This document shows positions 21,361 through 37,805 of a stretch of 64,000 nt of DNA, piece by piece. A program made the translations under genes and the position numbers. The notes under the pieces are model-generated. The model saw nothing but the letters and a program-made list of their open reading frames with translations, was not told the origin of the DNA and ran no database searches. The stretch is taken from NCBI GenBank assembly GCA_020073005.1, contig JAIQFX010000051.1, positions 732 to 64,731 of the forward strand. The letters run 5' to 3'. Source of the stretch: Terriglobia bacterium (GTDB lineage: Bacteria > Acidobacteriota > Vicinamibacteria > Vicinamibacterales > CAVVIG01). Numbering within the stretch: position 1 is the stretch's first letter; the number at the start of each line of letters is the position of its first letter.

Positions 21361-21653
21361 GAAACCCCCTCCTGAACTTACCGGCTCAGCGGCCGTGGTT
21401 GGCCCGCCTGAGCAATCCAACTGAAACGCACAGCGCCCGGCCATCGTGCGTTGTTCCAACAGAGCTTCACGCACGGACAGGCAAACACTATGCTCGACCT
21501 TGGAGCCGCGAAGCTTAACACCGAAGCCGTGGACGAGCAATCGTTTACGTGCCCTTCACGGATCCGAGGAATCGACAGGATTCCGCGTGAATCCAAGAAG
21601 TTGTTCGTGATGAGTCCGATAGACCGAATCTGGGACGTCCGAGAGAAACCGAT

Positions 21654-21685
21654 GCGCCGGAGGCACATTCGTCCGTCTCCGGCGC
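21654..21685 (-). terminator. Possible terminator after atpF
   Basis: Stem GCGCCGGAG/CTCCGGCGC with a 14-nt loop, followed on the minus strand by aucgguuucucuc. Confidence 0.4.
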
Positions 21686-21691
21686 CGTCAG

Positions 21692-22195
21692 CTAGTGGCG
21701 GGGCGTTTCGATCTGCTTCAGCGCTTCTTCGATGAGGCTCTCGTTGTCGGCCTTCGACAGGTTGCGGCCGATGATCTTCGACGCGATCATGACCGACAGG
21801 TCGACGGCCTCGCGGCGAATCTGCTGGACGGCGCGCGCCGTTTCCAGCTGAATCTGCCGCTCGGCGTTGCGCACGATGCCTTCGGCGTCGGACCGCGCCT
21901 TCTGCTTCATCTCTTCGCGCAGCCGCTCGCCGTCGGATCGGCTGCGGCTGACGATCGCTTCGGCCTCGACGCGCGCGGTCTTGATGATCTGCGCGGATTC
22001 CTGCTGCAGCCGCTCCAGCTCCTGCTTCGCCTGCTGCGCATCGTCGAGTGACTTCTTAATCAGCGCGTGACGACTTTCCAGCGCCTGGAGAAGCGGCCCC
22101 CACGCGAACTTCGCGAGCAGGGTCAGCAGCACCAGGAACGTGACAATGGTCCAGATGAACAGCCCCGGATCGGGCTGGACCAACGGGTTATCCAT
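21692..22195 (-). CDS. atpF: F0F1 ATP synthase F0 subunit b
   Basis: 167 aa with a single N-terminal TM segment (LFIWTIVTFLVLLTLLAKFAW). A long charged coiled-coil follows (KKSLDDAQQAKQELERLQQESAQII...). It lies directly after atpE. Confidence 0.85.
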   Translation of the reverse strand: MDNPLVQPDPGLFIWTIVTFLVLLTLLAKFAWGPLLQALESRHALIKKSLDDAQQAKQELERLQQESAQIIKTARVEAEAIVSRSRSDGERLREEMKQKARSDAEGIVRNAERQIQLETARAVQQIRREAVDLSVMIASKIIGRNLSKADNESLIEEALKQIETPRH

Positions 22196-22216
22196 AAAAA
22201 GTCCTTCGCATGAAGC

Positions 22217-22267
22217 CGTCAGCTATCAGCTGTCAGCACTGAAAAGCTGAGAGCTGTGCGCTGACAG
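22217..22267. repeat. Inverted TRTCAGC heptamer arrays between atpE and atpF
   Basis: cgtcagc tatcagc tgtcagc - spacer - gctgaga gctgtgc gctgaca gc. Confidence 0.7.
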
Positions 22268-22495
22268 CTACTTCAGCAGCACCACGAGCAGCGCGAAGAC
22301 TTCCGCCAGAATCGCGACGCCTTCGAGCAGGAAGAGCGGCAGGTTCACGGCGCCGGTGATCTTGTCGGCCGCGCTCGGCTGCCGCGCAATGCCTTCGGCC
22401 GCCGCCGCCGCCAGCTTGCCGATCCCGAGCCCCGCGCCGATGACGATCATGCCGAGCGCAATCGCGGCGCCAAAAAAATGCAGACTTCCTACCAT
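22268..22495 (-). CDS. atpE: F0F1 ATP synthase F0 subunit c
   Basis: 75 aa from the ATG at 22495, preceded by GGAGGA. Two-helix hairpin with GAGLGIG, the loop ARQP, and the carboxylate in LFLLEGVAI. Confidence 0.9.
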   Translation of the reverse strand: MVGSLHFFGAAIALGMIVIGAGLGIGKLAAAAAEGIARQPSAADKITGAVNLPLFLLEGVAILAEVFALLVVLLK

Positions 22496-22518
22496 TCGCC
22501 TATCCTCCGTTGAGAGTC

Positions 22519-23463
22519 TCAGTGATGAACGTGAATCGCCATGCCGATGAACACGGCCGACAGTAACGCGAACACATACGCCTGAACCAGCACGACGATG
22601 ATCTCGAGGCCGGAAATCCCGACGGCCAGCGGCACCGACACCACGGCGCCGACACCGATGCCGACAATCGCCCGTCCCGCCATTTCCGTGAACAGGAACA
22701 CGAACGACAGAATCGCGAGAATCGCGATGTGCCCGCCGGTCATGTTGGCCGCGAGTCGCATCGTCAGCGCGAAGGGCCGCACGAACATCCCCATGACTTC
22801 GATGGGGATCAGAATGATGTACAGGGGCCAGGCCAGGCCGTGCGGCACCATGTTCACCCAGTGCTTGATCGCGCCATGGGCGCGCGACCCGGCGACGATG
22901 ATGGCGAAGAACGTGATGGTCGCCAGCGCGGCCGTCACGTTGAAGTTCGCGGTGGCGGTCGTGCCGCCGTGCATCACGTGCTTGAGGAACGAGTCCTCGG
23001 CCGTATGCAGGACGAAATGATCCAGGAGACCGATCGTCTCGAAGACCGGGATCAAGCCGATGCCGTTGGCGCACAGGATGAACACGAACAGCGTGAGGAC
23101 GAGCGGCGTCCACGTGTTCACCCATTTCTTCCCGACGTTGGGCTGCACGATGGCGTCACGGACGAACTCGACGACGGCTTCAAGCGCGTTCATGAAGCCG
23201 GTCGGCAGCGGGCGATCCTGCTTCAGGTAGCGCCGCACGGTCCACGTCACGACGACGAAGACGAACGCCGCGACGAGCCACAGCATGAGCACGTGCTTGG
23301 TGACCGAGAAGTCGATGCCGAGAACGTGCGGCAGGCGGATCAGCGGATGATCGTGCCCGCTGTTCGACACGTGCTCGATGATCGTCTTGCCGGCGTTGAA
23401 CTTCTCGGCGGCCCCTTCGGCGGCAGCGGCGGCGTGTTCCTGAACGGCTTCCTGGACCAGCAT
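22519..23463 (-). CDS. atpB: F0F1 ATP synthase F0 subunit a
   Basis: 314 aa, polytopic, with the conserved ...RPFALTMRLAANMTGGH... arginine motif. Confidence 0.9.
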   Translation of the reverse strand: MLVQEAVQEHAAAAAEGAAEKFNAGKTIIEHVSNSGHDHPLIRLPHVLGIDFSVTKHVLMLWLVAAFVFVVVTWTVRRYLKQDRPLPTGFMNALEAVVEFVRDAIVQPNVGKKWVNTWTPLVLTLFVFILCANGIGLIPVFETIGLLDHFVLHTAEDSFLKHVMHGGTTATANFNVTAALATITFFAIIVAGSRAHGAIKHWVNMVPHGLAWPLYIILIPIEVMGMFVRPFALTMRLAANMTGGHIAILAILSFVFLFTEMAGRAIVGIGVGAVVSVPLAVGISGLEIIVVLVQAYVFALLSAVFIGMAIHVHH

Positions 23464-23487
23464 GATCGTTGATGAGTATCCGTCTGC

Positions 23488-23859
23488 TTATCGCGGCGCG
23501 CGCGGGCCGTCCGCGAACAGCCGGCGCAGCGCGAAGGCTTCCATCACGTGCAAGGCGACAAAGTAACCGGTGAAACTGACGACGAACGGCACTGGCTGCA
23601 GCGCCAGCCCCTTGAGCATCACCACGACGTAGAATCCGAAGAACACCATCTTGCCCGCGAACCCGGCGACCATCAGCCCGGTCACGCGCTCGGGCGTGCG
23701 ACGGTAGGTCTGCTCGATGAGCACCCAGCTCCCGATCGCGATCACGAGCGGCGCGAGCATGCCGAGCACGACCTCGGCGCCGATCCGCCTGCCGAACCAG
23801 CCGATCGCGGCCAGTGCCGTCAGTGCGCTCACGCCGGCCATCCAGGCGACCGTCTTCAT
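23488..23859 (-). CDS. atpI: ATP synthase protein I-like small membrane protein
   Basis: 123 aa from the ATG at 23859, which overlaps the previous stop (ATGA). It has four hydrophobic segments and sits immediately upstream of atpB. The assignment rests on position and topology. Confidence 0.55.
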   Translation of the reverse strand: MKTVAWMAGVSALTALAAIGWFGRRIGAEVVLGMLAPLVIAIGSWVLIEQTYRRTPERVTGLMVAGFAGKMVFFGFYVVVMLKGLALQPVPFVVSFTGYFVALHVMEAFALRRLFADGPRAPR

Positions 23860-24101
23860 CGCCGAAAAACCGTCTTCGCCAGCTCGTAGAATCCGACGAT
23901 CAGCCCCAGCAGCAGCCCACCGAGCAGGAACCAATGCGCCTGCCCGAGCACGAGGTCGACGGCGTATCCGATGCCGCCGAGCAGGATAATGGCGCCGATC
24001 AGCGTGTAGCTGGCCCCCGCCGCAGGTCCCGACCGACGAATATTCTCTTGGAGATACTTCAGCGAACGCGCTAGGAAGAAATCGGGGTCGTTGTCGGGCA
24101 T
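23856..24101 (-). CDS. AtpZ/AtpI-family small membrane protein (putative F0F1-ATPase accessory subunit)
   Basis: 81 aa. The segment ...ASYTLIGAIILLGGIGYAVDLVLGQAHWFLLGGLLLGLIVGFYE... matches the two-helix G-rich pattern of AtpZ-type proteins found ahead of atp operons. Confidence 0.6.
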   Translation of the reverse strand: MPDNDPDFFLARSLKYLQENIRRSGPAAGASYTLIGAIILLGGIGYAVDLVLGQAHWFLLGGLLLGLIVGFYELAKTVFRR

Positions 24102-24188
24102 GTTCCCCTAGCGCACGCGGGCATTATGCACGCGCGCCGGGGAGTATAGCGTACCTTGTGAAATACTTCACCAGCCGTCGATGAACCG

Positions 24189-25638
24189 TCAGCGGACCGC
24201 CGCCGCGATCCCCACGGCCCCCAGCGTCCGCGCCGACGCGTCGGCCAGCTCGAACAGCAGCCGCGGGTACACGCCCAGCACGAGCGTCGCCACCACCGCG
24301 ACCCCCAGCGCCAGCGCAAGCGTCGGGCTCGTCGTCGGCTCCGATCCGAACACATCGCGCTTCAAGTACATGAACACGACGATGCGGACGTAGTAGTAGA
24401 GCGAGACGGCGCTGTTGAGCACGCCGATCACGGCCAGCCCGTAGTACTTCGCGTCAATCGCCGCGCTGAACAGCCAGAACTTGCCCATGAATCCGGCGGT
24501 CGGCGGAATCCCGCCGAGCGACAGCATGAACAGCAGCATGGCGAACGCGCCGAACGGATTCCGGAACGCCAGACCGCTGAAGTCCTTCAGCTCGTCGCCG
24601 ACGACGTCCGCGCGCCGCAGCAGCACGACGACGGCGAACGCGCCGAGCTGCATGAACGAGTAGACCATCAGGTACACGAGCGTCGCCGTCACGCCGCGCG
24701 TCGTGCCCGCGACGATCCCGATCAGCAGGTACCCGGCGTGCGCGATGGACGAGTACGCGAGGATCCGTTTGACGTTGGACTGCGTGAGCGCGGCGAAATT
24801 GCCGACCGTCATCGTCGCGATCGAGAGAACGTAGAACAGCAGGCGCCAGTCGGCGCTCATCGTCGAGAGACCCTCGATGAAGATCCGGATCAGCATCGCG
24901 AACGACGCCGCCTTCGACCCGACCGAGAGAAACGCCGTGATCGGCGTCGGCGCGCCTTCGTACACGTCGGGCGCCCACATGTGGAACGGGACCGCCGCGA
25001 TCTTGAAGCCGACGCCCGCCACGACGAGGATCACGGCCAGCACCAGCCGCGGATCCTTCTCCTGACCCGCGAACGCCGCCGTCATCGCGCGCAGGTTCGT
25101 CGTGCCCGACAGCCCGTACAGCAGCGACATGCCGTACAGCAGAAGGCCGAGCGAAAACGCGCCGAGCAGGAAGTACTTCACCGCCGCTTCGTTCGACCGC
25201 TGATTCGGCTTGAGGAAGCCCGCGAGGATGGAGGCCGATGAAGATCGTGATGAGATCGATCCCGCCCGCCATGATCATCATGCCGAGCGTCGCGCAGAGC
25301 ACGAGGAAGTAGTACTCGCCGGGCGACGCGCCCTCGACTTCGAGGTAGCGCACGGACATGAGGACCGTCATCGCCGCGGCGATGAGGAAGACCACTTTGA
25401 AGAACAGCGCGAACTGATCGACCGCGATCAGGCCGTGGGCGACCTCGACGTGGGTGTTCGCGAACGGCACGAGCGAGGCGAGCGTCGCGCCGATGACGAG
25501 CAGCGTGATCCACGCCAGCGCGTTGCCGCTCCGGCGCGGTAGCAGGACGTCCGCGACCAGGACGAGCAGCGCCCCGCCGGTGATCACCAGCTCCGGCAGG
25601 ATGTAATAGAAGTCGCTCGTGGAGATTCCGGCCGGCAT
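24189..25638 (-). pseudogene. nuoN: NADH-quinone oxidoreductase subunit N, interrupted by a small deletion/frameshift at about 25230
   Basis: The N-terminal frame (25638-25231) reads MPAGISTSDFYYILPELV...AGGIDLITIFIGL. After one stray nucleotide (25230), the frame of ORF 24189-25181 continues ILAGFLKPNQRSNEAAVKYFLLGAFS... to 24189. About 8 conserved residues (E-L-x-S-x-x-x-Y type) are missing. Confidence 0.85.
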
Positions 25639-27281
25639 CACCGATTCTCCGGGGACGGGTCTCCGCTGGATCGCTTCGGAGACCCGTCCCCGAGGTCACA
25701 CGGCATCGAGGCGAGGAACTTCGCCGCGGGGTTGGTCGAGGCGGCGACCTGCGTGGGCGTCGGCGGCGCGGTGTCGCAGTCCGCGGCCTTCGCCGCGGCG
25801 TACTCCGGGCTCACGCGCGACATGACGTGCTGCACCGACGTCTCCAGCCGCCGCAGGAACGGCGCCGGATAGAGCCCCATCCACACCGCGAGGATCAGCA
25901 GCGGCGCGAACGTCGCGAACTCACGGTGGCTGAGATCCAGCAGCCGCTCGTTCTTCGGATTCTCGACCTTGCCGAACATGGTCCGCTGGTAGAGCGAGAG
26001 CATGTAGACCGCGCCGAGCACGACGCCGCTCGCGGCGAACGCCGCCCACACCTTGCTCGTCACGAACACCCCTTGCAGGATCAGGAACTCGCCGATGAAT
26101 CCGTTCAGCGTCGGCAGCCCGATCGACGACATCGTCATGACCATGAACACGGCGGCGTAGACCGGCATCACTTTGGACAGCCCGCCGTACTCCGAGATCT
26201 CGCGCGTGTGGCGCCGCTCGTAGACGATGCCGACGATCAGGAAGAGCGCGCCGGTCGAAATGCCGTGATTGAGCTGCTGAATGATGCTGCCCGTGATGCC
26301 CACCGGGTTCAGCGCGAACATGCCGAGCATCACCATCGCCATGTGGCTGACCGAGGAATAGGCGACGAGCCGCTTCCAGTCCTTCTGCGCGAGCGCGACG
26401 AGCGCGCCGTAGACGATGCCGATGATCGACAGGACGACGATCATCGGCACGAAATGCCGCGACGCCTCCGGCAGGATCGGGAGGCTGAAGCGCAGGAAGC
26501 CGTACGTCCCCATTTTCAGGAGGACGGCGGCCAGGATCACCGAGCCCGCCGTCGGCGCATCGGTGTGCGCATCAGGCAACCAGGTGTGGAACGGGAACAT
26601 CGGGACCTTGATCGCGAAGCCCAGGAAGAATGCGAGGAAGACCCACCACTGCAGGTTGAACGGCACGTTCAGCTTGTGGAACTGCGTGATGTCGAACGTG
26701 TAGATGCCGGTCAGCTGGTGGTTGTAGAAGTACAGCGCCAGGATGCCGAGCAGCATGACGACGCTGCCGACGAGCGTGTACAGAAAGAACTTGATCGCCG
26801 AGTACAGCCGGTTCGCGCTGCCCCAGATGCCGATCAGGAAGTACATCGGCACGAGCATGACTTCCCAGAACAGGAAGAACAGCAGGAAGTCGAGCGACAT
26901 GAACGCGCCGAGCATGCCGGTCTGCAGCACGAGCAGGAAGATGTAGTACTCCTTCACCCGCTCGGTGATCGCCGTCCACGACGACAGGACGGCGATGAAG
27001 CCCATCATCGTCGTGAGCAGGATGAGCAGCGTGCTCAGGCCGTCGACGCCGAGGAAGTATTCCGCTCCCACCGAGGGGATCCACTGCGCGCGCTCGACGA
27101 ACTGGAAGTCCGCGCTCGACGGGTTGTACCAGAACCAGAGCGGCACCGAGATGGCGAACCCGATGAGCGCGACGATGTTCGCGACCCAGCGGATGGCGTC
27201 CTCGTTCTTCTTGTTGATGAGCAACAGAACGAGCGCGCCGGCCAGCGGCGTGAAAAGAATGATCGAGAGGTAATGATTCAT
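25638..27281 (-). CDS. nuoM: NADH-quinone oxidoreductase subunit M
   Basis: About 547 aa from the ATG at 27281 (MNHYLSIILF...), 4 nt after the nuoL stop. Mrp-antiporter-like polytopic protein (WLPDAHTDAPTAGSVILA). It has a roughly 50-aa hydrophilic C-terminal extension. Its stop overlaps the nuoN ATG (TGATG). Confidence 0.9.
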   Translation of the reverse strand: MNHYLSIILFTPLAGALVLLLINKKNEDAIRWVANIVALIGFAISVPLWFWYNPSSADFQFVERAQWIPSVGAEYFLGVDGLSTLLILLTTMMGFIAVLSSWTAITERVKEYYIFLLVLQTGMLGAFMSLDFLLFFLFWEVMLVPMYFLIGIWGSANRLYSAIKFFLYTLVGSVVMLLGILALYFYNHQLTGIYTFDITQFHKLNVPFNLQWWVFLAFFLGFAIKVPMFPFHTWLPDAHTDAPTAGSVILAAVLLKMGTYGFLRFSLPILPEASRHFVPMIVVLSIIGIVYGALVALAQKDWKRLVAYSSVSHMAMVMLGMFALNPVGITGSIIQQLNHGISTGALFLIVGIVYERRHTREISEYGGLSKVMPVYAAVFMVMTMSSIGLPTLNGFIGEFLILQGVFVTSKVWAAFAASGVVLGAVYMLSLYQRTMFGKVENPKNERLLDLSHREFATFAPLLILAVWMGLYPAPFLRRLETSVQHVMSRVSPEYAAAKAADCDTAPPTPTQVAASTNPAAKFLASMPCDLGDGSPKRSSGDPSPENR

Positions 27282-27285
27282 AACG

Positions 27286-29469
27286 CTATCTGACAAAGAG
27301 ATAAATGGTGACGAACGCGAACACGCCGAACACCATCAGGAGCGCGTAGTTCTGCACGAGGCCCGTCTGCAGCCGCCGGAACCAGTAACTGCCTTCCTCG
27401 CAGACGCGGCCGACGAGGTTGACGACGCCGTCGACGACCGTGCTGTCGGTCAGGCCCGAGAACCACGCGCTGATGACCGTCAGCCAGCCCGTGCCGTTCA
27501 CCGCGCCGTCGACCACGTTCCGATCGAACGACCAGAGCCCGCGGCCGCTGGCGAGCGTCCCCGAGATCACGGTCGCGTTGTACAGCTCGTCGACGTAGTA
27601 CTTGTTCGAGAGCAGCTTGTGCGGTCCGGCCCACTGCTCCGCCAGTCCCTGCGAGATCTCGGGGCTCGTCACGTAGAACTTGCGCGCCAGGCCGATACCG
27701 GCGGCGGCGATCAGCACCGAGAAGCCCATCAGCCCGAGCTCGACGCCGCGCGACACGTGAGGCTCAGCTTCATGCTCGGCTTCGGCAGCCGGCGCGGCCG
27801 CGTGGCCCTCGCCGCCGGCCACGGCTTGCGCCGTGAAGCTCGGCTCCAGGAAGTGCTCGATCGTGTTCGGGCCGTTGAGCGCGGCCGGAATGCCGAAGAA
27901 CCCCGCGACGACCGCGCCGACGGCGAGCGCCATCAGCGGGAACGTCATCGGCGTCGGCGACTCGTGCGGTCCGTGCCACGCGCCGTGACCGTGACCGTGA
28001 CCGTGATCGTCGGGCGCCGCGTGGCCGTGCGCGTCATGACCGCTCGCGTGCGCCGGATCGGCGTGACCGTGCGCGGCTCCCGCGCCTTCCCATTCGGGTC
28101 CGCGGTACGCGCCGAGGAACGTCATCGACACGAGCCGGAACATGTAGAACGCGGTCATCAGCGCGGTGGCGACCGCGATCACCCAGATTGCCTTGTTGTT
28201 GATGAACGCGCGGAACAGGATTTCGTCCTTGCTGAAGAATCCTGAGAGCGGCGGGATGCCGGCGATCGCGAGCGTGCCGATGAACATCGTGGCGAACGTG
28301 ACCGGCATGTATTTCTTCAGGCCGCCCATGTGCCGCATGTCCTGCTCGCCCGCCATCGCGTGGATGACGGACCCGCTGCCGAGGAAAAGCAGCGCCTTGA
28401 AGAACGCGTGCGTCATCAGATGGAACGCGCCGGCCGAGAACGCGCCGACGCCCATCGCCGTGAACATGTAGCCGAGCTGCGAGACCGTCGAATACGCGAG
28501 CACGCGCTTGATGTCGTACTGCACGAGGCCGATCGACGCCGCCATGAACGCGGTCAGCACGCCGACGATCGCGACAATCTGCATGACCATCGGCGCGTGC
28601 GAGAACAGGACCGCGTTCCGGCCGACCATGTACACGCCCGCGGTGACCATCGTCGCCGCGTGGATCAGCGCCGACACCGGCGTCGGGCCTTCCATCGCGT
28701 CCGGCAGCCAGACGTACAGCGGAATCTGCGCGCTCTTGCCGGTCGCGCCGACGAACAGGAAGAGGCAGATGAACGAGAGCACGCCGAAATGCGTGGTCTC
28801 GACCGTCATCGTCGCGGCCGCGTTCTGCACCGCCCGGAAGTCGAACGTGCCGAACATGTAATAGATGAGGAAGACGCCCAGCACGAAACCCCAGTCGCCG
28901 ATGCGGTTCGTGATGAAGGCTTTCTTGCCGGCGTCCGAGGCGCTCTTCTTTTCGTACCAGTAGCCGATCAGCAGGTACGAGCAGAGACCCACGCCCTCCC
29001 AGCCCACGAACATCACCAGGAAGTTGTTTCCCAGGACGAGCATGAGCATGAAGAAGCAGAACAGGTTGAGGTAGCAGAAGAAGCGCGCCACGCCGCCGCG
29101 CGGCTCCTCCGCCATGTACGCCGTCGAGTAGACGTGGATGAGCGTGCCGATGCCGGTGACGACGAGAATCATCAGCCCGGACAGCGGATCGAGGCGGAAG
29201 CCCCACGGAATCTGCAGGCCGCCCACGCCGTGCTGCGTCATGAGCGGGATCGACGGAATCCACTGCGCGATGACGACGTCGAAGGCGCGCGACTCGGACG
29301 GCAGCCCGAGCAGCTGCCAGAACGCGAAGAGCGACAGCGCCAGCGCCGCCGTCATCATCGTGCAGGCCACGACGCCCGCCGTCTTGCGCGAGAACGAACG
29401 GATGCCGATGAGGCCGTTGATGGCGGCCCCGGCGCCCGGAAGCAGTGGAATCAGCCAGATGTATTTCAT
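27286..29469 (-). CDS. nuoL: NADH-quinone oxidoreductase subunit L (with a His-rich loop insertion)
   Basis: 727 aa. Motifs MKYIWLIPLLPGAGA... and WLPDAMEGPTPVSALIHAATMVTAG. The ATG follows the nuoK stop directly. Confidence 0.9.
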   Translation of the reverse strand: MKYIWLIPLLPGAGAAINGLIGIRSFSRKTAGVVACTMMTAALALSLFAFWQLLGLPSESRAFDVVIAQWIPSIPLMTQHGVGGLQIPWGFRLDPLSGLMILVVTGIGTLIHVYSTAYMAEEPRGGVARFFCYLNLFCFFMLMLVLGNNFLVMFVGWEGVGLCSYLLIGYWYEKKSASDAGKKAFITNRIGDWGFVLGVFLIYYMFGTFDFRAVQNAAATMTVETTHFGVLSFICLFLFVGATGKSAQIPLYVWLPDAMEGPTPVSALIHAATMVTAGVYMVGRNAVLFSHAPMVMQIVAIVGVLTAFMAASIGLVQYDIKRVLAYSTVSQLGYMFTAMGVGAFSAGAFHLMTHAFFKALLFLGSGSVIHAMAGEQDMRHMGGLKKYMPVTFATMFIGTLAIAGIPPLSGFFSKDEILFRAFINNKAIWVIAVATALMTAFYMFRLVSMTFLGAYRGPEWEGAGAAHGHADPAHASGHDAHGHAAPDDHGHGHGHGAWHGPHESPTPMTFPLMALAVGAVVAGFFGIPAALNGPNTIEHFLEPSFTAQAVAGGEGHAAAPAAEAEHEAEPHVSRGVELGLMGFSVLIAAAGIGLARKFYVTSPEISQGLAEQWAGPHKLLSNKYYVDELYNATVISGTLASGRGLWSFDRNVVDGAVNGTGWLTVISAWFSGLTDSTVVDGVVNLVGRVCEEGSYWFRRLQTGLVQNYALLMVFGVFAFVTIYLFVR

Positions 29470-29775
29470 TTACGACCGCATCACATTCATCTCGTCGATG
29501 TTGACGGTCTCTTTGTTGCGGTAGAACGCGAGGATGATGCCGAGGCCGACGGCCGCCTCGGCCGCCGCGACCGCGATGACGAAGATCGCGAACACCTGCC
29601 CGATGCCGTTCTGCAGCTGCTGCGAGAAGGCGATGAGGTTGATGTTCACCGCGTTCAGAATCAGCTCGATCGACATGAAGATGATGATGATGTTGCGGCG
29701 CACCATGACGCCCACCACGCCGATCGTGAAGAGCGCGGCCGAGAGCAGAATGTAGTGGGTCGTGGTGATCGGCAT
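29470..29775 (-). CDS. nuoK: NADH-quinone oxidoreductase subunit K
   Basis: 101 aa. [28 protein letters not shown]...[10 protein letters not shown]...[11 protein letters not shown] is a typical three-helix NuoK. Confidence 0.9.
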
Positions 29776-30287
29776 CACAGTTCCCTCTTGGCCAACACGA
29801 TCGCGCCAATCATCGCGACCAGCAGCAGCATCGACGCAATCTCGAACGGAATCAGGTAGCTGGTGTAGAGCAGCCAGCCAATCTGCGCGGTGTTGCCGGT
29901 CACGGGCATCGCCGCCCCCGGCACCGGGACCATCGCCGGCTGCGAGTGCCCGTAGACCGCGATGGCGCCGACTTCGACCAGCACGGCCGCGGCCAGCAGG
30001 AATCCGAGCATCGTCCGGCGATGCGGATCCGAGTGCGCCTCCGGCGGCCGCTTGAGATTCACCAGCATGACGACGAACAAATACAACACGACGATGCCGC
30101 CCGCGTAGACGAGCACCTGAATCGCGGCGAGGAACTCGGCGCCCAGCAGGACGTACAGCGCGGCCACGAACAGGAAGTCCATCACCAGGAACAGCACGCT
30201 GTGCACGGTGTCCTTCGTGCTGACCACCAGCACGGCGAATCCGAGAATGCACGCGGCGATGAAGTAGAACGCGATCGCTTGCGCCAT
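29775..30287 (-). CDS. nuoJ: NADH-quinone oxidoreductase subunit J
   Basis: 170 aa. [35 protein letters not shown]...[14 protein letters not shown]. The ATG shares one nucleotide with the nuoH stop (TGATG), so there is no room for nuoI. Confidence 0.85.
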
Positions 30288-31309
30288 CAGAGCAGCATCA
30301 CTTTGATGATCCCGGTGACCACCAGATTCGCGATCGCCAGCGGAATCAGAACCTTCCATCCGAGCCGCATCAGCTGGTCGTAGCGGTAGCGCGGCAGCGT
30401 CGCGCGAACCCAGATGAAGATGTAGAGGAAGACGAACGACTTGACCAGGAACCAGGTCCACGACGGGATGAAATCGAGGAACGAGAGAAACGCGACGTTC
30501 GGGAACGGACGCAGCCACCCGCCGAGGAACAGCGTCGTCGCGACCGACGAGACGACGATCATGTTCGCGTATTCGGCGAGGAAGAACAGCGCGAAGCGCA
30601 TCCCGCTGTATTCGGTGTGGAAGCCGCCGGTCAGCTCCTGCTCCGCTTCCGGCAAATCGAACGGCGCGCGGTTGGTTTCGGCGAGGCCGCCGATGAAGAA
30701 GATCAGGAACGCCAGCGGCTGCACGAACGCGTACCACATGTGCGAGCTCTGCTGCGCGCGCACGATGCTGACCATGCTGAGCGAACCGGCCATCATGATG
30801 ACGCTCACGAGCGTCAGCGTGACCGCGACTTCATAGGAAATCAGCTGCGCCGACGCGCGCAGGCTGGCCAGCAGCGGGTACTTGCTGTTCGACGCGTAGC
30901 CCGCCAGGATGATCCCGTACACGCCGACCGACGCGACCGAGACGATGTAGAGCAGGCCGACGTTGATGTCGGTGATGTAGAGCGTCACCTGCCGGCCGAA
31001 CAGCTTCACCTCGGGCCCGAACGGAATCACCGCGTACACGATGAGCGCCGGCACCATCGAGATGATCGGCGCGATCGTGAAGACCCACCGGTCGGCGCGG
31101 ACCGGCGTGATGTCTTCCTTGATCATCAGCTTCACGGCGTCGGCGACCGGCTGCAGGATGCCGTACGGGCCGACGCGCATCGGGCCGAGCCGCGACTGCG
31201 CCCACGCGATCACCTTCCGCTCGAGCAGCACCATGTAGGTGACCGAGACGAGCGTCGCGTTGAGGACGATGACGATCTTGAGCAGCGGGATGACCAGCGT
31301 GTCGATCAT
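30287..31309 (-). CDS. nuoH: NADH-quinone oxidoreductase subunit H
   Basis: 340 aa from the ATG at 31309. Motifs ...[34 protein letters not shown]... and ...[29 protein letters not shown]... Confidence 0.9.
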
Positions 31310-31331
31310 TTCAGTTCTTGGCCGCAGGCGC

Positions 31332-32462
31332 TCACCGGTCGACCTCACCGAGCACGACGTCGAGCGATCCGATGAGCGCGACGACGTCTGCAACAAGATG
31401 GCCCTTGATCAGCGTGCGCAGCCCCTGGAGATTGCAGAACGACGGCGGCCGGACGCGGAACCGGTACGGGTTGGTCGATTTGCCGTCGCTGACGATGAAG
31501 TAGCCGAGCTCGCCCTTCGGCGATTCGATCGCGTGATAGGTTTCCCCCGCCGGCGGTTTGATCAGGCGCGGCACCTTGCCGACGATCGGGCCCTCGGGAA
31601 TGCCCTCGGTCGCCTGCCGGATGACGCGCAGCGACTGGCGGAATTCCTCGAGCCGCACCAGATACCGATCGTAGGTGTCGCCGGCCGTGCCGATCGGCAC
31701 GTCGAACTCCATCTCGTCGTACGCGGCGTAGGGCTCGTCCTTGCGGACGTCGCGCGGCACGCCCGAGCCGCGCAGCGGCGGGCCGCTCAGCCCGAGCGCC
31801 ACGGCCGCCGGACCGTCGATCACGCCGATGCCTTTGGTGCGCTCCAGCCAGATCCGGTTGTGCGTCAGCAGCTCCTCGTACTCGTCGATCTTCGTGGCCA
31901 TGATCGTGCAGAACTCGAGGACCTTCTTGTCCCAGCCGGGCGGGATGTCCAGCGGCAGTCCGCCGATGCGCATCGAGTTGTACGTGAGGCGCGCGCCGCA
32001 CATTTCCTCGAAGAGATCGAGAATCAGCTCGCGCTCGCGGAACGCGTAGAGGAACACGGTCATCGCGCCGATGTCCATCGCGTGCGTGCCGACCCAGAGG
32101 CAGTGGCTCGCGATCCGCTGCAGCTCGCACAGAATCGTCCGCACGTACCGCGCGCGGCGCGGCACCTCGAGCGACATCAGCTTCTCGACCGTCTCGCAGT
32201 AGCCGACGTTGTTGGTCGCGGCCGCGACGTAGTCCATCCGGTCGGTGAGCAGGATGATCTGCGTCCAGTTGCGGTTCTCGCTCAGCTTCTCGATGCCGCG
32301 GTGCAGGTAGCCGATGACGACGTCGGCGTCCACCACCTTCTCGCCGTCCAGGCGCAGGACGACGCGCAGCACGCCGTGCGTGCTCGGATGCTGCGGGCCC
32401 ATGTTCAGCACCAGCTCGTTGGTGTCGAACATGGCGCCGTGATGAATGACCGGTGTGTCCAT
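31332..32462 (-). CDS. nuoD: NADH-quinone oxidoreductase subunit D
   Basis: 376 aa. Motif ...[26 protein letters not shown]...[11 protein letters not shown]..., ending [13 protein letters not shown]. Confidence 0.9.
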
Positions 32463-32490
32463 TTTTCAATGGGCCGAGCGAACTCGGCCC

Positions 32491-33096
32491 TTACTCAATG
32501 TCCGCCTGCTCGCGCGACTGGCGCAGCTTGAGCCACTCGATCGGATTTTCGAGTAGCAGTTCGCCCGGCCCTTCGAGCGGATAGTCCTTGCGCTGCGGGT
32601 GGCCCTGCCAGTCTTCGGGCATCAGGATGCGCCGGCGATCCGGATGTCCGGTGAAGCCGACGCCGAACATGTCGTAGACCTCGCGCTCCAGCCACCCGGC
32701 CGCGGGCCAGACGCCGGTGACCGACGCCAGCGGCTGCTGCTCGCCGAGAATCACCTTCAGCCGGACGCGATGCCGGTGCCGCGTCGAGTAGAGGCAGTAG
32801 ACGACGTCAAAGCGGCCTTCCGCGCGTGGCGGCCAGTCGGTCGCGGTGACGTCGGAACAGAAGTCGAACGCCGCGTCGGCGGCGTCGCGCAGGTGCTGTG
32901 CCACTTGCAGGATGAGCGCCGCGGGGACGACGAGCGTCCAGTCGCCAAGCCAGTAACTGACGTGCGTCACGCCTCCGGGCACCGCCGCGTGAAGCGTCGC
33001 GATGAACGCGGGCGCCGTGACGTCGGCCGGCGGCGGCGGATCGGGAGGGCCCGTCGGCGCGGCGGCCTTCGGGACATGCGCGGGCGCGTCAGCCAT
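32491..33096 (-). CDS. nuoC: NADH-quinone oxidoreductase subunit C
   Basis: 201 aa. Motif ...DVVYCLYSTRHRHRVRLKV...WPAAGWLEREVYDMFGVGFTGHPD. The ATG immediately follows the nuoA TAA, so no nuoB lies between them. Confidence 0.85.
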   Translation of the reverse strand: MADAPAHVPKAAAPTGPPDPPPPADVTAPAFIATLHAAVPGGVTHVSYWLGDWTLVVPAALILQVAQHLRDAADAAFDFCSDVTATDWPPRAEGRFDVVYCLYSTRHRHRVRLKVILGEQQPLASVTGVWPAAGWLEREVYDMFGVGFTGHPDRRRILMPEDWQGHPQRKDYPLEGPGELLLENPIEWLKLRQSREQADIE

Positions 33097-33453
33097 TTAG
33101 ACCCATTCCAGCGCGCCCTTTTGCCACGCGTAGTAATAGCCAACGACCAGGATGAAGATGAACACGAGCATCTCGATCAGCCCGAACAGGAGCAGCTTGT
33201 CGAAGATGACGGCCCAGGGAAACATGAAAACGGTCTCGACGTCGAAAATCACGAACAGCATCGCGACCAGGTAGTACCGGATGCTGTAGCGATCGCGCGC
33301 GTCGCTGAGCGGCTCGATGCCGCACTCGTACGGCTCGAGCTTGACTTTGTTGTACTTGCTCGGATGAATCAGACTCGTGAAGACGAGCGTGAACAACGCA
33401 AAGCCGGTCGCAACGGCGACGAAAATGGCGATTGGGATGTAAGAAGAAAGCAT
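33097..33453 (-). CDS. nuoA: NADH-quinone oxidoreductase subunit A
   Basis: 118 aa. Motif ...KLEPYECGIEP...RYSIRYYLVAMLFVIFDVETVFMFPWA... Confidence 0.9.
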   Translation of the reverse strand: MLSSYIPIAIFVAVATGFALFTLVFTSLIHPSKYNKVKLEPYECGIEPLSDARDRYSIRYYLVAMLFVIFDVETVFMFPWAVIFDKLLLFGLIEMLVFIFILVVGYYYAWQKGALEWV

Positions 33454-33608
33454 TGAGGTGACGCGTCGCGAGAGAAAAACGCGACAGAGAAAAGCCGTTG
33501 GTTTATAACACGCGACCTGAGGGGTGTCAAGAAAACGGCCGCCCGCGGTTTCGGTGCAATCATTCGCCGCAACCTACAGATTTCAAACCATTTTTCGTCG
33601 GCGAATCC

Positions 33609-33644: not shown

Positions 33645-34541
33645 ATGAACGCTGGGCGCATTTGGCCCGCACTCCTGCTCGCCGCGCTCGTCCTGACCTG
33701 GCCGGGCCGGCTCGCCGCGCAAGCCATCCAGCGATCCATGTACGTCAGCGTGATCACCGACGCCGGCGCGCCGGTGCCCGATCTCGGACCGCCGGACTTC
33801 ATCGTGCGCGAAGACAACGTCGCGCGCGAAGTCCTGCACGTCGAACCCGCGACGGACCCGATGCAGGTGGCCGTGCTCGTCGACACGAGCCAGCAGGCGC
33901 GCAACGACATCGCCTACATGCGGACGGCGCTGCCGCCGTTTGTCGCCACCTTGACCGAAGGTGCCGTCAAGAGCGAGGTCGCGATCATCGGGTTCGGCGA
34001 GCGGCCGACGACCCTCTCCGACTACACGACCAGCCGCGCGACGCTGCAGAAAGGCGTCGATCGCATCTGGTCGCAGCAGGGCTCGGGCGCGTACCTGCTC
34101 GACGCGATCACCGAGATCAGCGAGGGCTTCAAGAAGAAGGAATCGCGGCGGCCGGTGATCGTCGCCATCGCGGCTGAAGGCGCCGAGTACAGCTTCCGTC
34201 AGTACGATCAGGTGCTCGAAGCGCTCGCCGGCGGCGGCGCGGCGTTCTACGCGATCATGCTGGGCACGCCGTCATCGTCGGTGAGCCAGGAAGCCATCAG
34301 CCGCAACATCGTTCTCGATCGCGGCCCGAATAACAGCGGAGGCCGGCGCGAGCAGTTGCTCAGCGCCATCGCGCTCGGCGAAAAGCTGAAGCAGCTCGGC
34401 GACCAGCTCACGCACATGTACAAGGTGACCTACGCGCGGCCGCAGTCGCTCATCCCGCCGGAGAAGGTCACCGTCGCGGCCACCGGCGCCGGACGCACGG
34501 CGCACGGCACATTGATCAAGGACGACAAGGGCCGTCGATGA
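33645..34541 (+). CDS. VWA-like (TIGR03436-style) exported protein
   Basis: 298 aa with signal peptide ...LTWPGRLAAQA. Motifs VSVITDAGAPVPDLGPPDFIVREDNVAREV and VAVLVDTSQQARND, tail YKVTYARP. The stop overlaps the next ATG (ATGA). Confidence 0.7.
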   Translation: MNAGRIWPALLLAALVLTWPGRLAAQAIQRSMYVSVITDAGAPVPDLGPPDFIVREDNVAREVLHVEPATDPMQVAVLVDTSQQARNDIAYMRTALPPFVATLTEGAVKSEVAIIGFGERPTTLSDYTTSRATLQKGVDRIWSQQGSGAYLLDAITEISEGFKKKESRRPVIVAIAAEGAEYSFRQYDQVLEALAGGGAAFYAIMLGTPSSSVSQEAISRNIVLDRGPNNSGGRREQLLSAIALGEKLKQLGDQLTHMYKVTYARPQSLIPPEKVTVAATGAGRTAHGTLIKDDKGRR

Positions 34542-35536
34542 CCCGGCATCTGAGGACATGGGCGGCCCCGGCGATCGCCGTCGCCATGGCTGCGGCACTG
34601 GTGAGCGTCTCGGCGCAAACGCCGGCGCAAACGCCGCCACCTGATCCGCAGGCGCCCGGCCGTCAGCAACCCCAGCAACCCTCGTTTCGCGCGGGCGTCG
34701 ACCTCGTGTCGCTGAACGTCACGGTCTCCGACGGCACCGGCAAGTACGTCACGGATCTCGGGACCGAGGATTTCAACGTGTTCGAGGACGGCGTCAAGCA
34801 GGACGTGACGTTCTTCACCAAGACCAACCTGCCGATTGCGCTGGCGCTGCTGCTCGACACGAGCGCCAGCATGGACACCAAGCTGCCGACCGCGCAGGAA
34901 GCGGCGATCGGCTTCGCGAAGCGGCTGCGGACGCAGGATCTCGCTGAAGTCATCGACTTCGACAGCCGCGTCGTCGTGCTGCAGAACTTCACCGCCAGCG
35001 CGCCCGAGCTCGAGCAGGCGATCCGCAAGACGTCGGCCGGCGGATCGACGTCGCTCTACAACGCGGTCTACATCGCGCTCAAGGATCTGAAGAAGGTCGT
35101 CGCGAAGAACGTCGACGAGATCCGCCGGCAGGCGATCGTCGTGCTGTCGGACGGCGAAGACACGTCGAGCCTGCTGCCGTTCGAGGAAGTGCTCGACCTC
35201 GCGAAGCGATCGGAAACGGCGATCTACTCCATCGGCCTGCGCGCGCCCGAAGGCCCGGGCTCGTCGAGCACCAAGGGATTCAAGGAAGCCGAGTTCGTCC
35301 TGCGGCAGTTCTCGCAGGAGACCGGCGGCCGCGCCTTCTTTCCATCGCAGCTCGCGGACCTCGCCGGCGTCTACGGCCAGATTTCCGACGAGCTGTCGAG
35401 CCAGTACACGGTCGGCTACACGCCGCGGAATCCGCGCCGCGACGGCTCGTGGCGCCGGATCGTGGTCCGGGTCGCGAGGCCGAACCTGACGGCGCGCACC
35501 AAGCTCGGCTACTTCGCGCCCACCACGCCGCGATGA
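34538..35536 (+). CDS. VWA domain protein (TIGR03436-like) with an intact MIDAS motif
   Basis: 332 aa with a signal peptide. Motifs FRAGVDLVSLNVTVSDGTGKYVTDLGTEDFNVFEDGVKQDV, LALLLDTSASMD (DxSxS) and GGSTSLYNAV, with tail YTVGYTP...WRRIVVRVARPNLTARTKLGY. Confidence 0.85.
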   Translation: MTRHLRTWAAPAIAVAMAAALVSVSAQTPAQTPPPDPQAPGRQQPQQPSFRAGVDLVSLNVTVSDGTGKYVTDLGTEDFNVFEDGVKQDVTFFTKTNLPIALALLLDTSASMDTKLPTAQEAAIGFAKRLRTQDLAEVIDFDSRVVVLQNFTASAPELEQAIRKTSAGGSTSLYNAVYIALKDLKKVVAKNVDEIRRQAIVVLSDGEDTSSLLPFEEVLDLAKRSETAIYSIGLRAPEGPGSSSTKGFKEAEFVLRQFSQETGGRAFFPSQLADLAGVYGQISDELSSQYTVGYTPRNPRRDGSWRRIVVRVARPNLTARTKLGYFAPTTPR

Positions 35537-36357
35537 ACGTCGCGCCGCTTGCCCTCTACACGGCGGCCATGGCGGCTTACGCCTGGCACTTCGCGCAGCG
35601 CAATCCGGCCGTCGGCCGCGCCGCGACGACGATGCTCGTCGCCGGCGCGCTCGCGCACACCTTCGTGATCGGCATGCTGACGATGGAGATCGGGCAGGTG
35701 CCGATGGCGGGCGCCACGTCCGCGATCTCGACGTTCGTCTGGCTGCTGGCCCTCGCGTATCTCTACACGGAGATGACGACCGACGAGCGCGCGATGGGCG
35801 TGTTCATCCTGCCGCTCCTCGTCCTGCTGCAGGCGATTCCGGCGATCCGTCCGATCGAGACGCGCGCGGCGGTGCTGCAGGGGCCGCTGTTCGGGATCCA
35901 CGTGTCGTCGCTGCTGTTCGCGTACGCCAGCTTCGCGCTCGCGTGCGTCATCGGCATCACGTACGTCCTGCTCTTCAAGGAGATCAAGGCCAAGCATCTC
36001 GGCTTCTTCTACGCGCGGCTGCCGTCGCTCCAGGTGCTGGACCGGATGAATCAGCGGGCGATCGTCATCGGCTGGATCTTCCTCACCTTGGGTTTGATCG
36101 TCGGCTTCATCTTCGCCGCCCAGGCGCGCGGCGGCTACGGATCGGGCGACCCGCGGGTGCAGGCCATGTCGCTCATGGATCCGAAGATCTTCGTCGCGCT
36201 CGTGTGCTGGGTCGTGTACTCGTTCGAGCTGTTCGGCGCGCGGCGGATCGGCTGGGGCGGACGGCGCACCGCGTACTTGTCGCTGCTCGGCTTCGTGATC
36301 GTGCTGCTGAACTTCGTGCCGATCAGCTACTTCTTTTCGAAGAGCCACAACTTCTAG
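35533..36357 (+). CDS. HemX/CcsA-like polytopic membrane protein (cytochrome c assembly protein family) preceding hemA
   Basis: 274 aa from the ATG at 35533, which overlaps the previous stop (ATGA). It has about 8 TM segments. A W-poor version of the WWD region (...SLMDPKIFVALVCWVVY...) is present. Its position upstream of hemA matches the hemAXCDBL-type operon layout. Confidence 0.6.
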   Translation: MNVAPLALYTAAMAAYAWHFAQRNPAVGRAATTMLVAGALAHTFVIGMLTMEIGQVPMAGATSAISTFVWLLALAYLYTEMTTDERAMGVFILPLLVLLQAIPAIRPIETRAAVLQGPLFGIHVSSLLFAYASFALACVIGITYVLLFKEIKAKHLGFFYARLPSLQVLDRMNQRAIVIGWIFLTLGLIVGFIFAAQARGGYGSGDPRVQAMSLMDPKIFVALVCWVVYSFELFGARRIGWGGRRTAYLSLLGFVIVLLNFVPISYFFSKSHNF

Positions 36358-36362
36358 CGATG

Positions 36363-36449
36363 AATCTGGTCATTGAGTCATTTGGTTACGTGGTCATTTT
36401 GAGGACGCACTCAATCGGCCACATCAATGACCAGATCACTAGATGACTC
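36363..36449. repeat. AT-richer inverted repeat (TGGTCAT-type heptamers) in the hemX-hemA gap
   Basis: atctggtcattga (36364-36376) is the exact reverse complement of tcaatgaccagat (36424-36436). There are further tggtcat / atgactc copies. Confidence 0.75.
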
Positions 36450-36464
36450 GATGAACACATTCGC

Positions 36465-37805
36465 ATGCACCTTCTTCTAGTCGGAGTCAGTCACCGCACC
36501 GCGCCGGTCGAAGTGCGCGAGCGCGTGGACTTCCAGGCGCGCGGCGTCGCCGAGGCGCTCGGCGTGCTGGCCTCGCGCGGGTCGACGCGCGAAGCGGTCG
36601 TGCTGTCCACGTGCAACCGCGCCGAGCTGTACGTCGCCTGCGACGACGTCCAGCCGACGCGCGACGATCTCGTGGGCTTCGTCGGCGACTTCCACGGCCT
36701 CGCGCACGCAGACCTCGCGCCGCACGTCTACGACGTCAGCGATCTCGACGCGGCCCGCCATCTGTTCCGCGTCGCGGCAGGGCTCGACTCGCTCGTCGTC
36801 GGCGAGCCGCAGATCCTCGGTCAGGTGAAGGAAGCGCATTCAGTCGCCACCGAAGCGCACACCGTCGGGCCGGTGCTCAACCGGCTGTTCCACAGCTCGT
36901 TCGCCGTCGGCAAGCGCGTGCGGACCGAGACCGGCCTCGGCTCCGGCGCGGTGTCGGTGAGCTACGCGGCCGTCGCGCTGGCGCGCAAGATCTTCGGCGA
37001 CCTCACGGGCCGGAACGTCCTCGTCGTCGGCGCGGGCGAGATGGGCAAGCTGACCGCCCTGCACATGAAATCGCAGGGCGTGCACCACATGACGATCATC
37101 AGCCGGACGATGGCGCACGCGGCGCGGACGGCCGAGGCGATCGGCGGCGCGAGCGCGGCGCCGTGGGACGAGCTCGATGCGTCGCTCGGCGCGAGCGACA
37201 TCGTGATCACGGCGACCGGCGCGAGCGCGCCGATTCTCACGAAGGCGCACATCGAAGGCGTCATGCGCCGGCGGCGCAGCCGTCCCCTGTTCATCATCGA
37301 CATCGCCCTGCCCCGCGACGTCGAGTCCGCGGCCGGCGAGATCGAGCAGGTGTTCCTCTACAACATCGACGATCTGCAGGCAACCGTTCGCGAGAATCTC
37401 GCGCGGCGCGCCAGCGAGATGGTCCGCGCCGAAGCGATCGTCGCCGAGGAGATCGACAAGTTCGGCGCGTGGTTCCGCTCGCGGGGCGCGATTCCGACCG
37501 TCGTCGCGCTGCGCCAGCGCTTCGAGGCGATCCGCCAGGCGGAGCTCGAGCGCCTCGACTTCAAACTCTCCGCGCTGCCGCCGGAAGCCCGCACGCGCGT
37601 CGACGAGATCACGCATCTCATCGTCGAGAAGCTTCTGCTGACGCCGACCGAGCAGCTCAAGGCGGTCGGCGACGCCGACACGGTCGGCGCGTACACCGAG
37701 GCGCTCACGCGCCTGTTCGGCCTGCCCGAAGAGGGCGACGCGGAACGCACGGATACCGTCGAACCTTTCAACCCCGAACGACGCAATCGGCCGCGCTCGC
37801 GCTGA
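36465..37805 (+). CDS. hemA: Glutamyl-tRNA reductase
   Basis: 446 aa. MHLLLVGVSHRTAPVEVRE...VVLSTCNRAELY (catalytic Cys), and the NADPH-binding site VLVVGAGEMG. Confidence 0.92.
   Translation: MHLLLVGVSHRTAPVEVRERVDFQARGVAEALGVLASRGSTREAVVLSTCNRAELYVACDDVQPTRDDLVGFVGDFHGLAHADLAPHVYDVSDLDAARHLFRVAAGLDSLVVGEPQILGQVKEAHSVATEAHTVGPVLNRLFHSSFAVGKRVRTETGLGSGAVSVSYAAVALARKIFGDLTGRNVLVVGAGEMGKLTALHMKSQGVHHMTIISRTMAHAARTAEAIGGASAAPWDELDASLGASDIVITATGASAPILTKAHIEGVMRRRRSRPLFIIDIALPRDVESAAGEIEQVFLYNIDDLQATVRENLARRASEMVRAEAIVAEEIDKFGAWFRSRGAIPTVVALRQRFEAIRQAELERLDFKLSALPPEARTRVDEITHLIVEKLLLTPTEQLKAVGDADTVGAYTEALTRLFGLPEEGDAERTDTVEPFNPERRNRPRSR

Follow-up and report, generated by a model that had tools for sequence, protein, structure and literature searches.

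Complex I genes divided between distant loci in soil Vicinamibacterales, with nuoB and nuoI placed behind a ferredoxin gene

Gene content of the nuo-atp run

The stretch of DNA analysed here (hereafter the window) comprises 64,000 nucleotides of contig JAIQFX010000051.1 (positions 732 to 64,731, forward strand) from the assembly GCA_020073005.1 of a Terriglobia bacterium placed in the order Vicinamibacterales of the Acidobacteriota. At 21692-33453 its minus strand carries the complex I genes nuoA-C-D-H-J-K-L-M-N followed by atpZ-I-B-E-F, which include the F0 genes of an ATP synthase (Table 1). Gene names are Pfam assignments of the minus-strand open reading frames (ORFs) in this interval, and 13 of the 14 genes could be named unambiguously. 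An earlier note, made from the letters of this DNA alone, had listed the same genes and had pointed out that nuoB, nuoI, nuoEFG and all F1 genes are missing from among them, a description that the Pfam assignments bear out. The junctions that it had singled out also read as it gave them: the nuoA TAA and the nuoC ATG are directly adjacent (33097/33096), nuoD and nuoH are spaced by 22 nt, and the nuoH TGA and the nuoJ ATG have one base in common (30287). The nuoJ/nuoK and nuoM/nuoN junctions are TGATG overlaps, nuoK/nuoL reads TAAATG, nuoL and nuoM are separated by a 4-nt gap, and 87 nt lie between the nuoN stop and the atpZ ATG. Junctions as tight as these leave no room in the run for nuoB, nuoI, nuoEFG or F1 genes.

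Genes that are fused to or hidden in the run would undo this observation, as the note itself had recognised. No ORF of the run has an Oxidored_q6 (NuoB) or ferredoxin domain in Pfam, and in a six-frame search of the whole genome the NuoB and NuoI models (PF01058, TIGR01971) had no match on the window contig. A fused or concealed nuoB or nuoI is hence rejected, and the observation stands. All genes of the run other than nuoN, which is treated below, are full length. In the atp half, the ORF at the atpI position has no Pfam match and is kept at the same position in relatives, and atpB is the sole a-subunit gene of the genome (tblastn, whole genome). The motif of the c subunit encoded by atpE reads E then G without Ser/Thr; by a general rule, we take the absence of the Ser/Thr of Na+ sites to indicate an H+-type c subunit.

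Table 1. Genes and candidate signals of the nuo-atp run, in window positions
Feature	Position	Strand	Product and evidence
sigma-70-like promoter candidate	33502..33530	-	TTGACA-17 nt-TATAAA, 48 nt before the nuoA ATG; read from sequence
nuoA	33097..33453	-	118 aa; PF00507, E 5.7e-39
nuoC	32491..33096	-	201 aa; PF00329, E 5.2e-46; ATG abuts nuoA TAA
nuoD	31332..32462	-	376 aa; PF00346, E 1.6e-100
nuoH	30287..31309	-	340 aa; PF00146, E 5e-127
nuoJ	29775..30287	-	170 aa; PF00499, E 2.3e-41
nuoK	29470..29775	-	101 aa; PF00420, E 3.6e-30
nuoL	27286..29469	-	727 aa; PF00361 + PF00662; His-rich variable loop
nuoM	25638..27281	-	547 aa from ATG 4 nt past nuoL stop; PF00361, E 1.8e-80; same call in a near-identical contig
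nuoN	24189..25638	-	two frames; 23-bp deletion at ~25230
atpZ	23856..24101	-	81 aa; PF09527, E 5.6e-8
atpI-like small membrane protein	23488..23859	-	123 aa; name from position only; start overlaps atpZ stop
atpB, F0 subunit a	22519..23463	-	314 aa; PF00119, E 3.7e-52
atpE, F0 subunit c	22268..22495	-	75 aa; PF00137
atpF, F0 subunit b	21692..22195	-	167 aa; PF00430, E 1e-29
terminator-like hairpin + T-rich tail	21652..21668	-	23 nt past atpF stop; consensus scan

Conservation of the layout

Among public genomes, the loci closest to this one all belong to Vicinamibacterales. The order nuoA-C-D-H-J-K-L-M-N recurs in every one of the 80 related loci fetched around NuoD, as far as the contigs reach, at NuoD identities of 79-96%, and none of the 80 has a NuoB or NuoI homolog within 10 kb of NuoD. 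A layout unique to this assembly is rejected by these loci, closed chromosomes among them. The earlier note had held that the missing genes were left out of the cluster by design and not through degradation, and had proposed the recurrence of the gene order in relatives as a check; the order does recur, and the common order together with flanks that are free of nuoB and nuoI supports its view. The cluster represents a genuine layout found throughout this lineage of soil Vicinamibacterales, and with the partner genes present elsewhere (see below) nothing is lost.

Partner loci elsewhere in the genome

The genome to which the window belongs (G000) consists of 179 contigs and 5.86 Mb; C36, C50 and similar labels denote its contigs. 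Profile searches of this genome gave five NuoB-family, two NuoI-like, one NuoF, one NuoE and one NuoG-type match. One nuoB, standing alone, was located at the end of C36 (99794-100339), where the gene for an 85-aa ferredoxin (fdx) ends 8-10 nt before its start, and a nuoI begins at the end of C50 (68419-68817, minus strand). C36 and C50 have 139 nt in common at these ends; once they are joined there, the stop of nuoB overlaps the start of nuoI, so that this genome has a tight fdx-nuoB-nuoI operon, which a contig gap has split (C36:99528-100475). The F1 genes atpH-A-G-D-C form a separate operon on C133. That the partners of the run must be encoded elsewhere, as the note had concluded, is thus shown for both complexes.

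With F0 subunits a, c and b at one locus, delta-alpha-gamma-beta-epsilon at another and one set per genome, the ATP synthase is of the F type. It does not have the features of an N-type ATPase, as the F1 genes do not adjoin F0 and the c subunit is without the Na+-type Ser/Thr. A second ATP-synt_ab gene pair at C111:33122-35316 perhaps belongs to a V/A-type ATPase; the genome has no second F-type a subunit.

The search for additional nuo paralogs, which the note had also suggested, brought up a second complex I that contains NuoEF. Its genes, located by tblastn with the window proteins, run nuoA-B-C-x-D-E-F-H-J up to a contig end (C37, 90-6641) and continue with L-M-N (C169, 1-5200), x being a SIS-domain-like gene between nuoC and nuoD. 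This second complex is itself scattered, with a nuoI (C138:4487-4933) and a 595-aa nuoG-like gene (C108:2287-4074) that stand alone. The nuoE and nuoF of the genome sit inside the second cluster, which has its own nuoB. The nuoI on C138 is of the canonical type and only ~30% identical to the split-type NuoI encoded behind fdx, and by sequence it is best assigned to the NuoEF-containing complex. As a separate observation, the region C95:24000-39000 holds two clusters with NuoB-, NuoD- and NuoH-like and several NuoL/M-like genes, probably of the group-4 hydrogenase/Mrp type.

Co-occurrence of the two nuo loci

The chromosomes of five closed relatives have exactly one NuoB, one NuoI and one NuoD each; their nuoB and nuoI adjoin each other at a distance of megabases from the one nuoACDHJKLMN cluster. 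The order fdx-nuoB-nuoI is found in 15 other Vicinamibacterales genomes (the five closed and ten further ones), and wherever genomes of the order were examined, nuoB and nuoI had a locus of their own. Co-occurrence was scored in 151 genomes, sampled evenly across the order. An ortholog of the split-type NuoI (77-99% identity) is present in 87 of them and an ortholog of the window's NuoD (75-100% identity) in 88, the two occurring together in 85, while four families (51 genomes) have neither. The window's genome is among the few discordant ones, its own nuoI, with 24 codons missing, falling below the threshold. This co-occurrence of the loci, along with the fact that the closed genomes hold no other NuoB or NuoI, suggests that the products of the two loci would form one complex.

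Type of enzyme

The membrane arm and the Q-module both have the features of a true complex I. All seven membrane subunits (NuoA, H, J, K, L, M and N) have Pfam matches far above the cut-off, and the Q-module is complete in the genome, with nuoC and nuoD in the window and nuoB and nuoI at C36/C50. Against solved complex I 49-kDa subunits (Aquifex, mitochondria, cyanobacterial NdhH, Thermus, E. coli), NuoD gave E-values of 1e-118 to 1e-90, the best being 1.8e-118, whereas matches to the large subunits of Mbx, Mbh and FHL were weaker (1e-64 to 1e-47) and the NiFe hydrogenase model PF00374 stayed below its cut-off. The note had recommended placing NuoD phylogenetically against Mbh-like complexes, among others; in these searches NuoD sides with true complex I (1e-118 vs 1e-64 at best). 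The quinone-site motifs HGV and MDY are present in NuoD, and we take them to be the equivalents of His38 and Tyr87 of Thermus. The motifs GLACCAIEM, GSCSNAGGP and SGCPPRPE were read in NuoB, whose Cys residues are presumably the four N2 ligands including the tandem CC.

The genes of the NADH module (N-module) are distributed differently. No NuoEFG gene lies in the cluster, and the single nuoEF of the genome lies in the other cluster, so that the enzyme departs from the 14-subunit complex I. Within the sample of the order, a NuoF-type gene is present in 135 of the 151 genomes. Of the 16 that are without one, 13 carry the split complex, eight of these being single-contig genomes; these 13 relatives, which belong to the lineage of the enzyme, have the eleven nuo genes and no NuoEFG. 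The five closed relatives that keep the split complex have neither NuoF nor a NuoG-type Fe-S domain. The 13 NuoF-less relatives and the five closed genomes without a NuoG-type domain thus indicate that the core enzyme of the lineage works without NuoEFG. The earlier note had offered, as an alternative, a variant module that pairs with a different electron-input unit: the part of this alternative that dispenses with NuoEFG is upheld by these relatives, and the nature of the input unit is a separate matter that is taken up below. Outside the order, the nearest NuoI proteins are 41-52% identical (300-genome sample of the phylum), and the 19 that were inspected all lie in ordinary nuoD-H-I-J-K-L clusters with nuoH directly after nuoD. 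An 11-subunit, N-module-less complex I of this kind has been termed NUO11 (Moparthi and Hagerhall 2011, PMC3144371; Degli Esposti 2015, PMC4758237), with examples in Chlorobium, Bacteroides and Desulfitobacterium (PMC11238625). To judge from its sequence, the enzyme of the window is a NUO11 with a rearranged operon.

It is therefore our view, held with high confidence, that the organisation of the run reflects nothing more than a dispersal of genes, the run being the NUO11 membrane arm with NuoC and NuoD followed by F0, nuoB and nuoI standing behind fdx, and F1 forming a third locus. The run encodes seven membrane subunits together with NuoC and NuoD of what would be a quinone-reducing, proton-pumping complex I, with NuoB (cluster N2) and NuoI (N6a/b) supplied from the fdx-nuoB-nuoI locus. 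The F0 half that follows the nuo genes would be part of the only F-type ATP synthase of the cell and would receive F1 (atpHAGDC) from the third locus, a three-way split that is normal in most families of Vicinamibacterales. Most likely the eleven products would assemble, reduce menaquinone and pump protons, with electrons that may enter from reduced ferredoxin.

The ferredoxin gene and the electron donor

The product of fdx belongs to the 7Fe family, with full-length matches to solved members at E 4.5e-27 to 3e-23 (best 1H98, E 4.5e-27), relative to which it has an insertion of 8 residues after the first Cys motif. Both Cys motifs and the C-terminal helix align with those of the 7Fe ferredoxins of Thermus thermophilus (1H98), Bacillus schlegelii (1BC6) and Mycobacterium smegmatis (FdxA, 2V2K); unlike in those cases, fdx is in this lineage the first gene of an operon that continues with nuoB and nuoI. 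The 2-oxoacid:ferredoxin oxidoreductase family is represented by two or three genes in each of the 16 genomes of the NuoF-poor family, and in two of these genomes one such gene lies 8-9 kb from fdx-nuoBI. In the closed genomes G146 (C1:2037085-2037603) and G070 (C1:3621124-3621642), a ~1600-aa open frame resembling pyruvate:ferredoxin oxidoreductase (POR) was noted at 8-9 kb from fdx-nuoB-nuoI.

Five genomes without the complex, one from each of the four families mentioned above and one from the window's own family, keep an fdx ortholog alone (71-82% identity), and a ferredoxin dedicated to the complex is rejected on this ground. In three of the five, fdx is flanked by an IclR-type regulator gene on one side and a TPR gene on the other, the latter being the gene that follows nuoI elsewhere. 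This shared TPR neighbour indicates that nuoBI sits precisely between fdx and its old neighbour, which may reflect either an insertion or a later clean loss.

The fdx operon, the 2-oxoacid:ferredoxin oxidoreductases and the precedent of cyanobacterial NDH-1 make ferredoxin the most economical donor. Two points hold our confidence down: fdx is a housekeeping gene that is also found without the complex, and POR-family genes are widespread. That reduced ferredoxin, most simply the co-transcribed 7Fe ferredoxin, and not NADH, would be the donor is accordingly put forward as a tentative suggestion, to which we give somewhat less than an even chance. The more specific proposal, in which the fdx-nuoB-nuoI operon marks the 7Fe ferredoxin as the physiological donor or a bound twelfth subunit of an N-module-less complex I in abundant, aerobic Acidobacteria of soil, which would then be a respiratory, proton-pumping ferredoxin:menaquinone oxidoreductase fed by 2-oxoacid:ferredoxin oxidoreductases, seems to us rather unlikely, if conceivable.

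Alternative explanations

Several points weigh against an 11-subunit enzyme that is put together from two loci and fed by ferredoxin. We infer the joint assembly of the two sets of products from co-occurrence. The adjacency of fdx could be a chance result of the site where nuoBI landed, as sister families keep fdx without the complex, and POR-family genes are frequent across bacteria as a whole, with 11 of 14 control genomes carrying them. If the nuoN and nuoI deletions described below are real, the copy of this strain may be non-functional. The window's genome as a whole, moreover, is not free of NuoEFG: a second, NuoEF-containing complex coexists with the split one, and the one nuoE, one nuoF (C37) and one nuoG-like gene (C108) could serve both complexes. 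It is on this last point that a different reading builds, namely that the complex of the window is an ordinary NADH dehydrogenase which borrows the single NuoE/F/G set encoded in or near the second cluster, the split then being irrelevant to electron input; the NuoF-type genes of 135 genomes in the order are in keeping with it. Yet nuoE and nuoF are embedded in the second cluster together with that cluster's own nuoB, the canonical nuoI stands alone and has only about 30% identity to the split-type protein, and the 13 relatives (eight of them single-contig) keep the split complex without any NuoF. We consider such borrowing improbable.

Nor do we think it at all probable that the cluster is a decaying remnant in this strain, with real deletions in nuoN and nuoI and an enzyme that is no longer made, a reading for which we see slightly less room than for borrowed NuoEFG. 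It has the deletions themselves in its favour. The note had overlooked that nuoN is broken in this assembly: the 23-bp deletion at ~25230 puts the gene out of frame and costs it eight conserved codons (ETMAVSFY, with the glutamate of GLE among them). The nuoI of this genome lacks 24 residues, in frame, between its two 4Fe-4S motifs when compared with 87 orthologs. In three other assemblies, contigs begin or stop within nuoN, and independent assemblies that break there would fit a real polymorphism. On the other side, the nuoN deletion is absent from every relative, and the 23 bp are present in two contigs that come from other metagenome assemblies and match the window at 99.6-99.7% identity, both encoding an intact NuoN of 490 aa; the rest of the run is full length, and its orthologs are conserved in at least 85 genomes. 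The nuoH of the second complex I likewise lacks ~51 codons and is frameshifted, and this third intragenic deletion, in the other complex I, looks more like a habit of the assembly than like selection. Taken together, the three intragenic losses that this single assembly shows in complex I genes have the look of local misassembly or of strain variation. A pairing of the membrane arm and NuoC/D with some other small-subunit/ferredoxin module, such as the group-4 hydrogenase/Mrp-like one on C95, which would give a hydrogenase- or Mbx-like enzyme, is to our mind very improbable. Two of the five NuoB-family matches of the genome do lie on C95 beside NuoD-like and NuoL-like genes, but the closed relatives have a single NuoB-family gene, that of fdx-nuoB-nuoI, whose product has the tandem-Cys N2 motif, and NuoD is far closer to true complex I than to Mbx, Mbh or FHL and is below the cut-off of PF00374. 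The split, N-module-less complex I is the explanation that we retain.

Transcription signals and other features of the locus

The candidate promoter in front of nuoA was not listed by a stricter consensus scan. The hairpin that follows atpF is weak evidence for a terminator, terminator-like sites being no more numerous in the region than in shuffles, and the same consensus scan showed no terminator-like hairpin between nuoN and atpZ. Read-through from nuo into atp is possible in the window. Among the 80 related loci, atpZIBEF is a frequent neighbour of nuo, co-directional in ~30 and convergent in ~23. Co-transcription of nuo and atp as a conserved feature is rejected, because in roughly one relative in four atp has the opposite orientation to nuo; it is the nuo/atp neighbourhood that is conserved, and not a common transcript.

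Some features of the encoded proteins vary among relatives. NuoC has an Ala/Pro/Lys-rich N-terminal extension of ~45 aa, probably disordered; in the nuoA-nuoC region of relatives (L023-L102) the extension ranges from 30 to ~190 aa, with a conserved PKAPPEPPKGP..DPPPP at its end. N-terminal extensions of NuoC have been noted in the 11-subunit enzymes of Bacillaceae (PMC3144371). Among the long-read metagenome-assembled genomes of relatives, several (L023, L033 and L040) have nuoC frameshifts, which are most likely sequencing errors in the Ala/Pro-rich stretch. Residues ~495-535 of NuoL form a His-rich loop (HGHADPAHASGHDAHGH..HGHGHGHGAWHGPHESP) whose length is highly variable among relatives and whose HGHG-WHGPHESP end is conserved. 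Divergent from nuoA, the plus strand at 33645-37805 carries two VWA-domain genes, a cytochrome c assembly-type gene and hemA, and this region aligns with relatives too.

Relation to known systems

The enzyme resembles NUO11 in its eleven subunits (A, B, C, D, H, I, J, K, L, M and N), in the position of nuoH directly after nuoD, in the tandem-Cys motif of NuoB and the quinone-site motifs of NuoD, which are kept, and in the absence of NuoEFG from 13 relatives. It differs in that the described NUO11 operons are contiguous runs of eleven genes, whereas nuoB and nuoI have here moved behind a ferredoxin gene, and in that the window's genome has a second, NuoEF-containing complex I besides. Cyanobacterial and plastid NDH-1 (6HUM) is likewise without an N-module and has its genes spread over several loci (PMC4758237). 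Ferredoxin is the donor in that system, and NdhH is among the better solved matches of NuoD (E 2.3e-109). The split of NDH-1 is a different one (ndhCKJ, ndhAIGE, ndhH and others), its ferredoxin is a plant-type 2Fe-2S protein in place of the 7Fe protein found here, and it has ferredoxin-docking subunits specific to oxygenic organisms (NdhL-S, V, O). Judging from Pfam, none of NdhS, V, O, L, M and N is encoded in the run of the window, although no search aimed at them was made.

Complex I genes divided between loci are also found elsewhere, as in Bdellovibrio, whose nuo operon has been named 'split' (PMC4758237). Splits of that sort set the Q-module genes apart from those of the membrane arm, and either detach nuoB, C, D and I as a group or include NuoEFG. 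In the present case only nuoB and nuoI leave the cluster, while nuoC and nuoD stay with the membrane-arm genes. Split operons of F-type ATP synthase are known as well, with atpIBEF(F') apart from atpHAGDC in Rhodospirillum and Rhodobacter. The arrangement described here is like theirs in that the F0 genes for a, c and b and upstream small membrane proteins share one locus and delta-alpha-gamma-beta-epsilon another, and unlike theirs in that conservation here extends to the position of the F0 operon beside the nuo membrane-arm cluster, whether co-directional or convergent.

We found neither this particular split, with nuoB and nuoI alone detached and standing behind a ferredoxin gene, nor the complex I of Vicinamibacteria described in the literature searched. 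Complex I without an N-module, split nuo operons and the separation of F0 from F1 were already known; what would be new is this particular split and its conservation across most families of an abundant soil order. The puzzle posed by the layout has an ordinary answer, that of scattered operons, and the linkage to ferredoxin is the part worth following.

Implications

In Spero et al. (2015), the lack of a single one of the 14 subunits was enough for a genome to be scored as having no complex I, and automated pipelines that demand a contiguous or 14-gene nuo set will score genomes such as these in the same way. The electron donor of the many bacterial 11-subunit complexes I that have no NADH module is a long-standing open question. 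To our knowledge, it has been answered only for cyanobacteria and plastids (ferredoxin), some archaea (F420H2 or ferredoxin) and Campylobacter (flavodoxin). In an order that ranks among the most abundant of soil bacteria, the genes of the two Fe-S subunits that would take up the electrons share a predicted operon with a ferredoxin gene, which offers a concrete and testable candidate for the donor, and some closed genomes, in which the split enzyme is the only complex I, provide organisms in which that candidate may be tested.

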